A stretch of DNA of 28,488 nucleotides, from UHGV virus genome UHGV-0289470. The stretch is one strand, 5' to 3'. This document shows, one piece after another, positions 5,306-8,663 of the stretch. This DNA comes from a virus. Made by a program: the position numbers and the translations under genes. The notes below the pieces were generated by a model that saw only the letters and a list, made by a program, of their open reading frames with translations, did not search any database and was not told the DNA's origin. Numbering within the stretch: position 1 is the first letter of the stretch; the number at the start of each line of letters is the position of its first letter.

Positions 5306-5510
5306 TTACCTGAAATGGTATCTCTGCCACCGCTGGTTAATTAAGTTTGCTGTAAAAGACTGGATGACTGCGGATGCCAACAAGCTTAAACAACGAAAGG
5401 ACTATTACTACGCCAGAATGAAGGAAAACTACTGCTCAATCCGCACTCGCATATTTATTAAAAAAGACCTTCAGTCAATTCTTCAATTGCGAGGGAAGGT
5501 AAATGGCTAA
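5298..5510 (+). CDS. hypothetical 70-aa protein occupying the position where lambda has ninG
   Basis: ORF track; overlaps ninF by 8 nt. No recognisable domain. Confidence 0.4.
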   Translation: MSDYLKWYLCHRWLIKFAVKDWMTADANKLKQRKDYYYARMKENYCSIRTRIFIKKDLQSILQLRGKVNG

Positions 5511-5793
5511 TCTACGCAAAGAAGCGCGCGGCAGAGAATGCCAGGTACGTATTTACGGCATATGCAATGGCAATCCTGAAACTACAGTTCTGGCACATTA
5601 CCGGATGGCTGGAATTTGCGGAACGGGAATGAAACCTGACGACCTGATCGGCGCATGGGCTTGTAGTGACTGCCACGCGGAGATCGACCGACGCACCCAT
5701 AATCTCGACAACAAAGACGCCAGACTTTACCACCTCGAAGGCGTGATCAGGACGCAGGCGATACTACTGAAGGAGGGGAAGATTAAGCCATGA
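5503..5793 (+). CDS. YbcO-like DUF1364 protein (putative Cys-rich metal-binding nuclease)
   Basis: 96 aa, MANLRKEARGRECQVRIYGICNGNPETTVLAHYRMAG..CSDCHAEIDRR, the conserved pattern of DLP12 YbcO-type proteins. GAGGGAAGG RBS. Confidence 0.65.
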   Translation: MANLRKEARGRECQVRIYGICNGNPETTVLAHYRMAGICGTGMKPDDLIGAWACSDCHAEIDRRTHNLDNKDARLYHLEGVIRTQAILLKEGKIKP

Positions 5794-6152
5794 ACGAATA
5801 TCAGTTTGTGCTTCCATACCCACCGTCGCTGAATACCTACTGGCGAAGACGGGGAAGCCAATACTACATCAGCGATAAAGGCCAGAAATACCGAAAAGAC
5901 GTTCAGCAAATCATCCGCCAACTTAAGTTAGACATTTTCACCAAATCACGACTCCGCATCAAAGTCATCGCAGACGTTCCAGACTCCCGCCGCCGCGACC
6001 TCGACAACATCCTGAAAGGTTTACTCGACTCCCTTATCCACGCCGGATTTGCGGAAGACGACGAGCAATTCGATGACATTCGCGTAATTCGTGGTGTGAA
6101 AGTACCAGGCGGACGGCTTGGAATAAAAATCACCGAACTGGAGAACGTATGA
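5790..6152 (+). CDS. rusA: RusA Holliday-junction resolvase
   Basis: 120 aa; LPYPPSLNTYWRR...RRRDLDNILKGLLDSL...GGRLGIKITELE matches the RusA family closely. Confidence 0.85.
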   Translation: MNEYQFVLPYPPSLNTYWRRRGSQYYISDKGQKYRKDVQQIIRQLKLDIFTKSRLRIKVIADVPDSRRRDLDNILKGLLDSLIHAGFAEDDEQFDDIRVIRGVKVPGGRLGIKITELENV

Positions 6153-6283
6153 ACAAAGCATTCGAACGATATATGCGCCAGCGTTATGGCAATCGCTACG
6201 ATCTTTCCCGCGATATTAGCGGTTTCTACTGCCGTGAGGTTGTGAAACGAATGTTTGAAGTGTGGTGTCATTGCAAAGGATAG
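6149..6283 (+). CDS. small YlcG-like protein (44 aa)
   Basis: Not in the ORF track. ATG 6149 overlaps the rusA stop (ATGA), GGAG at 6140-6143, stop TAG 6281-6283. It sits where DLP12-type prophages carry ylcG, between rusA and the Q gene. Confidence 0.4.
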   Translation: MNKAFERYMRQRYGNRYDLSRDISGFYCREVVKRMFEVWCHCKG

Positions 6284-6294
6284 AGGGGAAGACG

Positions 6295-6918
6295 ATGAGA
6301 CTCGAAAGTGTAGCTAAATTTCATTCGCCAAAAAGCCCGATGATGAGCGACTCACCACGGGCCACGGCTTCTGACTCTCTTTCCGGTACTGATGTGATGG
6401 CTGCTATGGGGATGGCGCAATCACAAGCTGGATTCGGAATGGCTGCATTCTGCGGTAAGCATGAACTCAGCCAGAACGACAAACAAAAGGCTATCAACTA
6501 TCTGATGCAATTTGCACACAAGGTATCGGGGAAATACCGTGGTGTGGCAAAGCTCGAAGGAAATACTAAGGCAAAGGTACTGCAAGTGCTCGCAACATTC
6601 GCTTATGCGGATTATTGCCGTAGTGCCGCGACGCCGGGGGCAAGATGCAGAGATTGCCACGGTACAGGCCGTGCGGTTGATATAGCCAAAACGGAGCAGT
6701 GGGGGAGAGTTGTTGAGAAAGAGTGCGGAAGATGCAAAGGTGTCGGCTATTCAAGAATGCCAGCAAGCGCCGCATATCGCGCTGTGACGATGCTAATCCC
6801 AAACCTTACCCAACCCACCTGGTCACGCACTGTTAAGCCTCTGTATGACGCTCTGGTGGTGCAATGCCACAAAGAAGAGTCAATCGCAGACAACATTTTG
6901 AATGCGGTCACACGTTAG
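6295..6918 (+). CDS. Q: late-gene antiterminator Q (lambda Q type)
   Basis: ORF track 6262..6918. From ATG 6295 (GAGGGG RBS) the product MRLESVAKFHSPKSPMMSDSPRATASDS... matches lambda Q as recalled almost residue for residue, including the zinc-finger cysteines CRDCHGTG...CGRCKG. Confidence 0.9.
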   Translation: MRLESVAKFHSPKSPMMSDSPRATASDSLSGTDVMAAMGMAQSQAGFGMAAFCGKHELSQNDKQKAINYLMQFAHKVSGKYRGVAKLEGNTKAKVLQVLATFAYADYCRSAATPGARCRDCHGTGRAVDIAKTEQWGRVVEKECGRCKGVGYSRMPASAAYRAVTMLIPNLTQPTWSRTVKPLYDALVVQCHKEESIADNILNAVTR

Positions 6919-6960
6919 CAGCATGATTGCCACGGATGGCAACATATTAACGGCATGATA

Positions 6961-6989
6961 TTGACTTTTTGAATAAAGTTGGGTAAATT
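6961..6989 (+). promoter_or_regulatory. late promoter pR' with overlapping Q-utilisation (qut) region
   Basis: TTGACT (6961-6966), 17-bp spacer, TAAATT (6984-6989). The surrounding sequence acggcatgatattgact..gaataaa.ttgggtaaatttgactcaacgatgg is near-identical to lambda pR' as recalled. Confidence 0.65.
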
Positions 6990-7025
6990 TGACTCAACGA
7001 TGGATAAATGCACTCGTTAAATAAA

Positions 7026-7055
7026 GCCCTGAGTTAATAGCTCGGGGCTTTTTTT
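7026..7055 (+). terminator. tR'-like intrinsic terminator ending a short (about 60 nt) 6S-like leader RNA
   Basis: Stem GCCCTGAG (7026-7033) / CTCGGGGC (7041-7048) with one G-U pair, then TTTTTTT (7049-7055). Followed by tatctgcacaacag, as after lambda tR'. Confidence 0.6.
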
Positions 7056-7442
7056 GTATCTGCACAACAGATAATTGCATTGGGGTGACCGGTTAATCCC
7101 GTTACGCTAACCGAAACAGGCGCAGTGCAATTATCGTTGTGGTGAATGCGCAGGCTGATGCGCTAACTTATCAGCTAGATGGTGAGGTAAAGGCTCACCA
7201 TGGCGACGACGGGTAGTTCATTTACATGCCGGAAAACACAGCACCGGTCACCACACACCAAATACCTACCAGGACCATAAGAGCAAAAGCTCAACGCACT
7301 ACCCTCTATTGCCCACCGCGCCGTGGTCTTTTTTATTGCAGGCCGCAGATATCATTTTCAGATGCCATGTAGCAATCAGAGTCTGACGGCCTTTCCCCTA
7401 CAAACACACACAGCACCATCCGGAAAATCGGAGGTGAGGCCT

Positions 7443-7766
7443 ATGAAAATGCCATACAAACAAGATTTCATCGCTGCGCTACTTGCCGCCAAGGAGCAGG
7501 GTATTGGTGCAATGCTGGCTTTTATCATGGCGTATCTGCGTGGTCGCTATAACGGCGGCGCGGTAACAAAAACGCTAATTGATGCGCTGATGTGCGCGAT
7601 GATTGCCTGGTTCGTTCGTGACCTTCTGGACTTTATCGGCCTGAGCAGCAACCTCGCCTACATAGCCAGCGTCTTTATTGGATACATCGGCACCGATTCG
7701 ATCGGCAATCTTATTAAAAAACTTGCAGCAAAAAAGGCGGGAGTTGACGATGCAAACCAGTCCTGA
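7443..7766 (+). CDS. S: class I holin (lambda S type) with dual-start motif
   Basis: ORF track 7323..7766. The internal Met-Lys-Met at 7443 begins a product [39 protein letters not shown]... that matches lambda S closely. Three predicted transmembrane segments. Confidence 0.85.
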
Positions 7767-8199
7767 CGGAATTGCTCTGATAAAAAAATTTGAAGGTTGT
7801 CGGCTGACTGCTTACCCCGACCCCGGAACGGGAGATGCGCCGTGGACCATCGGCTATGGCTGGACCCATCCGGTTGACGGAAAGCCAGTAAAGCGCGGTA
7901 TGACTATCGACCAGCAAACCGCTGACAGGCTTCTGAAAACAGGGCTTGTTGGTTATGAGAATGACGTGCTGAAAGTTGTCAGGGTGAAGCTGACACAAGG
8001 CCAGTTCGACGCACTGGTGTCGTTCGCTTACAACGTTGGGTCGCGTGCTCTTTCCACATCTACACTGCTGAAAAAGCTGAATGCTGGCGATATAAAAGGC
8101 GCGGCAGATGAATTTCTGCGCTGGAATAAATCAGGCGGAAAGGTGATGCCGGGGCTCACGAATCGCCGCAAGGCAGAGCGAGCTCTGTTCCTGTCATGA
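7750..8199 (+). CDS. R: endolysin, GH24 lysozyme (P22 gp19-like)
   Basis: ORF track 7678..8199. ATG 7750 after GGCGGGAG, overlapping the holin 3' end. Lysozyme-like core (..[11 protein letters not shown]..) and C-terminus ..[11 protein letters not shown] as in P22 lysozyme. Confidence 0.8.
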
Positions 8200-8663
8200 T
8201 TAGCGCACTGGTTAAGCGTTACTGGCTGCAGTTGCTGGTGCTGGCGTTAATCGGCGCACTGGCTTTCTTCGTGAACCACTACCGCGACAACGCCATCACT
8301 TACAGAGACCAGCGCGATAAGGCCACTGAGAAACTCCTCCTGGCGACCGCCACCATTAAAGACATGCAGACCCGCCAGCGTGATGTCGCTGCACTGGATG
8401 CCAAATACACCGGAGAACTGGCTGATGCGAAAGAAACCATTGAGCGTCTGCATAGCGATGTCATTGCTGGCCGTAAGCGCCTGCAAGTCGCCGCCACCTG
8501 TGCAAAGTCAACGACCGGAGCCAGCGGCATGGGCGATGGAGAAAGCCCAAGACTTACAGCAGATGCTGAACTCAATTATTACCGTCTCCGAAGTGGAATC
8601 GACAGGATAACCGCGCAGGTTAACTACCTGCAGGAGTACATCAGGACTCAGTGCCTGAAATAA
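8196..8663 (+). CDS. Rz: Rz i-spanin
   Basis: N-terminal transmembrane segment, then a coiled-coil periplasmic domain; [11 protein letters not shown]...[19 protein letters not shown] matches lambda Rz. ATGA overlap with the lysozyme stop. Confidence 0.8.
8425..8610 (+). CDS. Rz1: Rz1 o-spanin lipoprotein embedded in the +1 frame of Rz
   Basis: ATG 8425 with GGAGAA RBS at 8412-8417. Signal peptide [20 protein letters not shown] with lipobox VSAC, proline-rich mature part [13 protein letters not shown]. Lies entirely inside Rz. Confidence 0.65.

Follow-up and report, generated by a model that had tools for sequence, protein, structure and literature searches.

Introduction

RNase P releases the C4 RNA of phages P1 and P7 and the CI RNA of phage P4, both small and structured, from operon leaders, and each of them combines a conserved fold with phage-specific variable loops. 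Short terminated RNAs that start at the late promoter pR' are known from phages lambda, 21, phi80, 82 and P22 and from Stx phages, StxS being a regulatory small RNA (sRNA; PMC7547250). GOLLD and ROOL, RNAs of phages and prophages whose function is unknown, are often found near transfer RNA (tRNA) islands and join a conserved core to a variable region in which tRNAs can be included, and GOLLD rises during lysis (PMC12286853). The Pas sRNAs (PasA, PasC and PasD) of enteropathogenic and enterohaemorrhagic Escherichia coli (EPEC/EHEC) prophages adjoin Q or holin-lysozyme genes, sometimes near tRNAs (bioRxiv 10.64898/2026.05.13.724894; PMC8550237). Here we examine the region between the antiterminator gene Q and the holin gene S (6919-7442) of UHGV virus genome UHGV-0289470, a stretch of 28,488 nucleotides (nt) to which we refer throughout as the window, and in which all features described lie on the + strand. 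This region is, in our judgement, probably a standard lambda-type Q/qut/pR'/tR' switch followed by a non-coding RNA cassette (7063-7334). The switch and its short leader are already known, and the cassette probably belongs to a new class of structured RNAs in phages, with members even in lambda and phage P1. We tentatively propose that the window contains an intact member of an undescribed, widespread class of phage non-coding RNA, which would be tRNA-shaped, preceded by a long hairpin that covaries, processed in a tRNA-like manner and equipped with a hypervariable, swappable arm that here mimics the binding site of ribosomal protein uS17. Loci with which the window was compared carry L numbers, L003 being phage lambda.

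Results

A conserved four-way junction lies downstream of tR'

Beyond the terminator tR', the window enters a long hairpin, here called module A (7063-7141), which abuts a cloverleaf-like four-way junction, here called the scaffold (7138-7255). Folding of 7056-7340 gave z=-3.3 on the + strand, where 0 of 200 shuffles were as good, and z=-1.1 on the - strand; the scaffold alone gave z=-2.9. Its acceptor-like closing helix, P1, comprises 7 base pairs (bp) between UGUGGUG (7138-7144) and CACCACA (7249-7255), and the 3' strand is followed by a tail, CA-CCA, at 7256-7260. Helix P2 (7148-7163; GCGCA-GGCUGA-UGCGC) occupies the D-arm position and helix P4 (7228-7248; GCCGG and CCGGU around an 11-nt loop) the T-arm position, both assigned from the fold and from RNAalifold, while helix P3 (7167-7213, core stem 7179-7186/7194-7201) is a variable arm. 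RNAalifold, applied to 12 full homologues, independently recovered module A and helices P1, P2, P3 and P4.

Among 141 copies of the scaffold, two almost invariant halves enclose between 13 and more than 160 nt of sequence that falls into 60 unrelated clusters. The 5' half in the window is exactly the family consensus UGUGGUGAAUGCGCAGGCUGAUGCGC, and the 3' half fits GCCGG-loop-CCGG(C/U)CACCACA with a loop of 11 nt, not 9 nt. The helices are retained through compensatory change: in 10 loci all of helix P1 has changed together, UGUGGUG/CACCACA being replaced by UUGGAUG/CAUCCAA, and the helix reads UGUGCUG/CAGCACA in lambda and UUGACCUUG/CAUGGUCAA in rV5-like phages; helix P2 appears as GAGCA/UGCUC, GCCCA/UGGGU and, in phage P1, GCACA/UGUGC; and helix P4 as CAGG/CCUG, CCAG/CUGG, UUGG/CCAA and CUGG/CCAG. 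Nearly all one-sided variants are G.U pairs on the + strand. Across 61 distinct scaffolds 94.2% of cells were paired, against 25-54% when partners were slid; nine pairs had changed on both sides, against 3.7±1.4 in shuffles (1 of 500 reached nine), and the covariation score was 0.122 against 0.063 (0 of 500 reached it), the informative variation in all of these comparisons coming from diverged copies (blastn-short, fetched loci), as the pattern used for collection fixed most of P2 and of the 5' strand of helix P1. A possible loop-loop contact between GCUGAU in P2 and AUCAGC in P4 is also conserved. Taken together, we consider it highly probable that 7063-7260 is a structured RNA maintained by selection.

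The initial annotation had supposed that the gap before S might hold either a structured RNA or a remnant of excised cargo. The former is borne out by the + strand fold and the covarying helices, and the latter does not suit 7063-7260, an intact copy of an element that is conserved as a family and shows compensatory substitutions. The perfect stem placed there at 7191-7209 is real and was misplaced by 10 nt: it is GGTGAG-gtaaagg-CTCACC at 7181-7199, and extends to 8 bp at 7179-7201.

Module A has a 20-pair stem formed by a 5' arm (7063-7084) and a 3' arm (7121-7141) around a variable interior (7085-7120), and starts 7 nt past the T-run of tR'. A comparison of 103 distinct upstream flanks shows the stem re-formed from very dissimilar sequences, for example CACAACGGGAAGGACACUGG/CCAGUGUUCUUCCCGUUGUG and CACAGGAGGGGCGAUUG/CAGUCGCUCCUCCUGUG, and U.G pairs are tolerated on the + strand only. 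It invariably closes with CAC(A)...(U)GUG, directly against the element that follows, features which the window shares at 7063-7141, where module A abuts helix P1; the interiors measure 27-95 nt and are unrelated between loci. In lambda a module A hairpin stands at the same place (L003 ~986-1066) with compensating differences.

Three side observations concern module A. The lambda segment L003 986-1140 (NC_001416 44785-44939) comprises module A (CACAACAGGTAAGAGCATTG...CAGTGCTCTTTCCGTTGTG), directly after tR', and a reduced scaffold; lambda carries a further reduced form, consisting of module A, helix P1 and two small hairpins, in which a G-C pair of the consensus helix P1 has become C-G, a compensatory change. 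In the window, GGTGACCGGT in the interior of module A (7085-7094) exactly complements ACCGGTCACC (7244-7253) in the 3' strands of helices P4 and P1, which could represent an alternative fold that disrupts the scaffold, or chance, both halves being partly palindromic. The interiors of module A in L013, L060, L218 and L274 sometimes hold canonical T-arm sequences such as GAGGGTTCGAATCCCTAC and GCGGTTCGATTCCGCC, which suggests embedded tRNA-like or T-loop modules.

The variable arm resembles helix 11 of 16S ribosomal RNA

The P3 arm of the window (7167-7213) matches the Rfam small-subunit (SSU) ribosomal RNA (rRNA) model at the positions of helix 11 with 33.2 bits and E=1.6e-7, all consensus pairs being formed, and the same match recurs in L001 (E=1.1e-7). 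When the arm was aligned with E. coli 16S rRNA 230-300 and with two other types of phage element that carry the same hairpin on other scaffolds, 34 alignment columns were invariant, and the differences within the stem were compensatory (UA/UA to AU/AU or UU/AA; GGG/CCC to CUU/GGG). Judged by its sequence and pairing, the arm is a mimic of 16S helix 11. A 16S gene or gene fragment was considered and rejected, as the match is confined to 47 nt, scores 33.2 bits against a gathering score of 50, and is flanked in the window by sequence that does not align with 16S rRNA. The helix is the site at which S17 (uS17), a primary assembly protein, binds 16S rRNA (PMC4604426; PMC3359968); in one review of moonlighting by ribosomal proteins, uS17 has no listed function outside the ribosome or in regulation (PMC10931766).

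Hairpins resembling helix 11 were found in 99 viral contigs, none of which carries flanking 16S sequence. Within 72 of these 99 (among L006-L104, for example L050 3890-4020) the hairpin belongs to a three-way junction with closing helix GCUUUGGGCUGGC/GCCAGCACCAAAGC, which forms part of the early-left leader and has a CI-like repressor upstream. This element directly follows sequences resembling what we presume, from position, to be HK022 putL/putR. A third type of element (L049, L057) is even nearer to E. coli helix 11.

One variable arm recurs: an insert found at P3 in L219, L106, L115, L154 and L163 contains GGAG(G/A)AAAGUCUUGGGG. The GGAGGAAAGUCCGGGC of RNase P RNA is universally conserved, and it is this sequence that the insert tentatively brings to mind; a stretch reading GGAGGAAAGUC in one variable arm may likewise resemble RNase P RNA.

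The scaffold occupies a tRNA slot

The whole gap recurs at 98.8-99.7% identity in six complete E. coli genomes (five over full length), and identity reaches 99.7% in E. coli KCJ3K291, ET729 and ES3. Other E. coli genomes share 7258-7445 only, with tRNA-Asn immediately upstream, and their homology with the window begins exactly at the CCA of 7258-7260: in the sibling prophage L002, tRNA-Asn ends in ...GTCCCGCCA and continues with AATACCTACCAGG, while the scaffold of the window ends in ...CACCACACACCA and continues with the same sequence. As both occupy the same position, end in CCA and are followed by the same trailer and terminator, tRNA and scaffold are alternative occupants of one slot, and the initial description of the gap as a slot in which Stx phages carry toxin genes and tRNAs is well founded as regards tRNAs. 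With its 7-bp closing helix, its P2, P3 and P4 arms issuing from one junction, and its terminal CCA, the scaffold resembles a tRNA in topology alone.

Comparable arrangements recur in other phages. The lambda segment L003 1067-1153 has a counterpart of 82-98% identity within tRNA arrays, both in rV5-like phages and in the P1-like phage D6, and in the array of seven tRNAs of rV5-like phages a lambda-type version of the element separates tRNA-Ser from the tRNA that comes next. In phage Bas80, tRNA-Met lies 104 nt beyond a scaffold whose P3 is of another kind. Phage P1 and P1-like plasmids carry a series of three tandem units, each of module A and scaffold, which starts 1 nt after the CCA of tRNA-Thr (phage P1 array: L274 1485-2110 and L275; NC_005856 69502-70127), and arrays of this kind were found at ~726 places on E. 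coli plasmids (P1-like phage-plasmids). Where a tRNA follows the scaffold, it starts 7-12 nt after it, on the same strand. The phage P1 record annotates the array as antisense hypothetical open reading frames (ORFs), plp and upl, the former overlapping trnT, and both are probably mis-annotations of the RNA array.

Family distribution and genomic context

The scaffold was identified in at least 140 viral contigs. A pattern representing its 5' half was found in at least 120 IMG/VR contigs and in 50 species genomes, which include many Enterobacterales, Aeromonas, Marinobacterium, Moraxellaceae and Lysobacterales, the betaproteobacterial genera Janthinobacterium, Massilia, Undibacterium and Xenophilus, one alphaproteobacterium and one Geobacteraceae metagenome-assembled genome; this 5' half, of 25 nt, is identical across bacterial classes. 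A 32-nt query matched 1267 of 5426 complete E. coli genomes. Among loci with classifiable flanking ORFs, a CI-type repressor (Peptidase_S24) lies upstream in 25 and an RdgC gene 13 nt downstream in 22, while Q of the lambda type (PF03589) lies upstream in 16 loci and an unrelated Q family (PF06530) in nine. In an Stx2a phage the element stands between cI and the first gene of the pL operon. These neighbours place the element, as a rule, in leaders of antiterminated operons (pL or pR').

In JD001-like myophages of Klebsiella and E. coli, the element forms a stand-alone unit of ~520 nt, antisense to the surrounding tail genes, with its own promoter (TTGACA-17-TGnAATTAT, extended -10) and a strong terminator, an arrangement that favours a gene for an RNA over a simple leader. 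Full-length members measure 400-600 nt, have their own promoter and T-loop-like hairpins, and include an additional conserved 5' domain of ~200 nt (...UUAGCGGUCUGGGG...GGUAGCCGGAAUGUG...GCGUGGCGAUUCGG...) that starts just after the promoter. This domain was seen upstream of module A in L001 2641-3190, L218, L217, L185, L177 and L174; all three of its motifs are present in 23 of the 141 copies, and at least one in 41. Lacking it, the window copy is a short form of ~270 nt within an operon leader.

The upstream switch carries a common leader allele

The gene upstream of the cassette encodes a lambda-type Q antiterminator (6295-6918; PF03589, E=1.3e-57), the 3' end of which is 97-100% identical to Q of HK544, HK97 and HK022. 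It is followed directly by pR' (6961-6989; TTGACT-17-TAAATT) with its qut region, a promoter and qut site that homologous phage records also annotate; in a promoter scan of 6200-8200, pR' was the only sigma-70-like site. Over the promoter and the first ~22 transcribed nt, which include the lambda initial transcribed (pause) sequence, the window differs from lambda by two substitutions, both in the promoter spacer. The transcript start is placed at A6996 from the lambda register, which was read by eye off conserved blocks, a global MAFFT alignment having misaligned the leader. From there a predicted leader RNA of ~60 nt (6996-7055), an analogue of 6S and StxS, ends at the T-run of tR' (7023-7055), a strong predicted intrinsic terminator composed of a 13-bp G+C-rich hairpin (7023-7051) and T7 (7049-7055), and annotated as a terminator in the phage Emek record. 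Override by Q is a prediction.

The initial annotation had likewise recognised a Q-dependent late switch, lambda-like in pR' and the first part of the leader, with a terminator arriving early, and these points stand: the leader spans ~60 nt, against 194 nt for lambda 6S RNA (L003 788-981) and 258 nt, processed to 74 nt, in Stx phages. Full-length homology to lambda 6S between the start site and tR' is absent, as had been anticipated. The internal deletion proposed to account for this does not hold. The leader and lambda 6S are co-linear in two blocks, one comprising the first ~22 nt and the other beginning at the T-run, and between these blocks lies a different, shorter terminator hairpin, which indicates allelic replacement rather than a deletion in the window phage. 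The stretch 6850-7053, covering the end of Q, pR', leader and terminator, is 100% identical in HK544 and 97-99.5% identical in mEp235, HK97, HK022, HK620, P22-like Emek and others, 139 phage records in all, several of which already annotate the qut site and terminator. On these alignments the short leader is an ordinary allele of HK97/HK022/P22 type, and a commoner form than that of lambda.

Coding content, trailer and lysis genes

The gap between tR' and S, initially noted at ~385 bp, is of normal length, the corresponding distance in lambda being ~405 bp. It contains no credible ORF, as originally stated. The longest (7226-7372) has 48 codons and no Pfam match; its start codon is lost in the near-identical homologue L019 (ATG to ATA), and its frame is broken by 1-nt indels in L040 and L064. 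The second hairpin and T-tract previously noted in the gap are present, at 7315-7327 and 7329-7334 (T6), and form a weak terminator-like structure at the end of a 3' trailer (7261-7334). The same trailer follows tRNA-Asn in L002, and the phage L record annotates a terminator there. The trailer stem is perfect in L002 (1556-1576; GCCCAC/GTGGGC) and has one mismatch, a G-to-T change (GTGGTC), in the window (7310-7334), which by its sequence weakens this second terminator. A run of at least six T residues lies 50-100 nt past the scaffold in 39 of the 141 loci.

The trailer gives way to the proximal 5' untranslated region (UTR) of the lysis cassette (7335-7442), with the ribosome-binding site of S, GGAGGTGAGG, and then to S itself (7443-7766), a lambda-family holin (PF05106, E=8.5e-30) that begins with the MKM dual-start motif, and to the lysozyme gene R (7750-8199; PF00959). 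In 12 IMG/VR loci with the same trailer and S leader, for example L093, an ORF with the Pfam homing-endonuclease domains HNH_3 and AP2 stands at the MKM start where S begins in the window, which suggests insertion of a homing-endonuclease gene at the head of the lysis cassette in sister phages. Upstream, 5503-6283 holds nin-type genes typical of such phages, with a RusA-like ORF (5790-6152) presumed from the annotation of the sibling prophage in L002, small ORFs before Q, and nothing unusual.

Searches against described RNA families

At gathering thresholds, Rfam 15 gave no match in the whole window. At permissive thresholds, the only matches in the window, L001, lambda and an additional 20 loci were helix 11, true tRNAs and weak matches resembling transfer-messenger RNA (tmRNA), the last upstream of module A in five loci (E 0.1-0.6); ARAGORN found no tmRNA in the 141 loci. 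The covariance-model scan advocated in the initial annotation therefore yielded the helix-11 match to the SSU model, and no Rfam family for the element itself. GOLLD and ROOL gave no match at E up to 10 in the window and L001, or at E up to 1 in the 20 loci. No published description of the RNA family was found in a literature search that left out most subscription journals.

Several candidate identities were tried and set aside. Variable arms acting as antisense RNAs on nearby targets, in the style of C4 and CI RNAs, were rejected as reverse-complement matches within ±2.5 kb were no longer than those of shuffled arms. The Pas sRNAs PasA and PasC adjoin holin genes, but are antisense and unrelated in sequence. 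The put RNA of HK022 was also rejected: HK022 has neither the scaffold nor, even at 12 mismatches, the helix-11 motif, and the gap of the window differs from HK022 after tR'.

Discussion

A model for the cassette RNA

Promoter pR' would be expected to fire constitutively, with polymerase stopping at tR' after ~60 nt to leave the short leader RNA, and Q-modified polymerase would read through tR' into 7063-7334. The cassette appears to be built like a tRNA transcription unit, with a leader hairpin, a cloverleaf-like junction ending in CCA, and a trailer with a weak terminator; the modified polymerase would ignore this terminator, which would end the unit in those settings where the unit has its own promoter. 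The position of the junction in the exact tRNA slot, together with its tRNA-like spacing in other phages, makes tRNA-processing enzymes the most likely agents of its excision from the late transcript, with RNase P perhaps cutting 5' of helix P1 and RNase E, RNase Z or exonucleases acting at the 3' side. By this analogy we regard excision in the manner of a tRNA as not quite an even prospect. Excision would leave a stable RNA of ~120 nt whose production is confined to late infection. As its arm copies the primary binding site of uS17, the RNA may recruit uS17, or some other ligand of helix 11, or serve as a decoy for it; any such host effect is speculative, and on the present resemblance we consider uS17 itself an unlikely candidate for the ligand.

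A number of observations weigh against so full a reading. ARAGORN predicts no tRNA in the window and RF00005 gives no match at E up to 10 in 6800-7600, the loops at the D and T positions and the anticodon position are without tRNA sequence signatures, and CCA is encoded in a minority of copies only. A tRNA lies within 700 nt of just nine of the 141 copies, so that a constant association of the element with tRNAs was discarded as an idea. The 20 loci scanned gave no Rfam match across the elements, inserts included, apart from helix 11; host-RNA mimicry thus belongs to the arm of the window and not to the whole class, and the notion that all variable arms mimic host RNAs was abandoned. Those columns of P2 and of the 5' strand of helix P1 that the collection pattern fixed are limited in what they can show, and the putative loop-loop pairing has no double compensatory change in the 61 scaffolds, the window keeping four of the five counted pairs. 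The window copy is without the ~200-nt 5' domain, its place before module A being taken up by tR' at a distance of 7 nt, and this short form, together with the vestige in lambda, implies that late-leader copies could be dispensable. Finally, we infer from sequence the read-through transcription, processing and stability of the cassette RNA, as we do every functional step of the model.

Alternative explanations

The reduced lambda copy, the mismatch in the second terminator of the window, the cloverleaf-like shape and the presence of tRNA-Asn in the slot of sibling prophages would all be expected if the gap were decaying cargo, a leftover of tRNA genes once carried in the late leader as in Stx phages and now without function, and other family members do contain true T-arm sequences such as GGTTCGAATCC. 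We nonetheless think this improbable, given that compensatory change maintains helices P1, P2 and P4 and module A, unlike in pseudogenes, that the helices of the window are all intact and the 25-nt 5' half is identical across bacterial classes, and that the sequence of the element is not tRNA-like and tolerates G.U in a strand-specific manner. That same preference for G.U on the + strand speaks against the conserved blocks being DNA 'boundary sequences' for the exchange of lambdoid modules, with the inserts as the exchanged DNA. Such a recombination linker would accord with conserved ends around hypervariable centres, with the make-up of the region as a patchwork of 40-120-bp blocks that are 90-99% identical to unrelated phages, and with the annotation of a neighbouring block as 'bsq3; boundary sequence' in CUS-3; it sits poorly with compensation between the two strands of helix P1 over unrelated inserts that range from 13 to more than 160 nt, with inserts of 13 nt that carry no gene, and with the stand-alone unit of JD001-like phages and its promoter and terminator. 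We give the linker the same low standing as decaying cargo.

A cis-acting role, in which the cassette serves as a 5' UTR element (a site for RNase III, E or P, a stabiliser, or a put-like element as in HK022) and not as a trans-acting RNA, is also unlikely in our view, if slightly less so. The element recurs in antiterminated leaders, after the two unrelated Q families PF03589 and PF06530 and after CI-type repressors (the pL leader), the 20-bp stem of module A is a plausible RNase III substrate, and the related three-way junction with its helix-11 hairpin follows what we presume from position to be put-like sequences. Against this, the element is a stand-alone terminated gene, antisense to tail genes, in JD001-like phages, and lies within tRNA arrays of phage P1 and rV5-like phages, where there is no operon leader; moreover HK022 has neither scaffold nor helix-11 element, and Q already antiterminates at this locus. 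That the gap encodes small proteins, for example from 7139-7216 (25 aa) or the 48-aa frame at 7226-7372, is very improbable indeed. ORFs do exist, the phage P1 annotation places plp and upl on the strand opposite to the homologous array, and several phage records label the region 'hypothetical protein'; yet there is no Pfam match, near-identical homologues show start loss and 1-nt indels, the inserts are unrelated in length and sequence, and plp overlaps trnT. Changes in the helix-11 arm preserve pairing as RNA (AU/AU, UU/AA, UA/UA), while as codons they give D>V and H>Q. With its indels, lost start codon and RNA-type covariation, the coding reading of the gap was dropped, and a structured, possibly trans-acting phage RNA remains our preferred reading.

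Implications and comparison with known systems

On the preferred reading, the short leader and untranslated gap are mostly ordinary lambdoid architecture, and not the product of a deletion or an empty cargo slot. What they enclose is an RNA conserved almost to the nucleotide in about a quarter of complete E. coli genomes, in phage P1, Stx, rV5-like and JD001-like phages, and in prophages of Beta- and Alphaproteobacteria. If real as a class, it would account for a conserved stretch after tR' (and pL) in some of the best-studied phages, correct probable mis-annotations such as plp and upl of phage P1 and many 'hypothetical proteins', and constitute a natural tRNA-scaffold system for the display of RNA modules. 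The copy of helix 11 leads to a directly testable hypothesis, that a phage RNA binds uS17; were it true, this would be the first phage RNA to target a primary ribosome-assembly protein, in a class that went unnoticed in lambda, as a vestige, and in phage P1, in three copies.

In its switch, the window shares with lambda 6S and the StxS of Stx phages the lambda promoter, the qut site and the initial transcribed sequence, as well as a constitutive tR'-terminated RNA that is a by-product of Q control (PMC7547250), and differs from them in its terminator hairpin, which is that of the HK97/HK022/P22-type allele. With tRNA genes of lambdoid late leaders and phage arrays, the scaffold has in common its slot, four-way junction, 7-bp closing helix, arms at the D and T positions and CCA tail, and it abuts tRNAs at tRNA spacing in phage P1 and rV5-like phages, as in tRNA arrays. 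Unlike a tRNA, it holds at the position of the anticodon arm an insert that varies from phage to phage and measures 13 to more than 160 nt, and its loops are not D or T loops of tRNA. The C4 and CI RNAs differ from it in sequence and architecture, and Rfam gave no C4 match in the window or the 20 loci. PasA, with an unrelated published sequence, runs antisense to the late operon, and PasD resembles STnc100, an RNA with no match in the window.

As a non-ribosomal RNA that copies the binding site of a ribosomal protein, here the helix-11 site of uS17, the element is akin to ribosomal-protein operon leaders and to OLE RNA, which has been proposed to sequester RpsU; it is unlike those leaders in being encoded by a phage and not linked to rpsQ, and binding is here a prediction. 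GOLLD and ROOL offer a broader parallel, being likewise phage-encoded, near tRNAs in some phages, and composed of a conserved core and a variable region. The present element differs from these in that its hosts are Proteobacteria and that the window copy is short, at ~270 nt, and lies in an operon leader, and as a class it may prove to be the Proteobacterial counterpart to those enigmatic phage RNAs.

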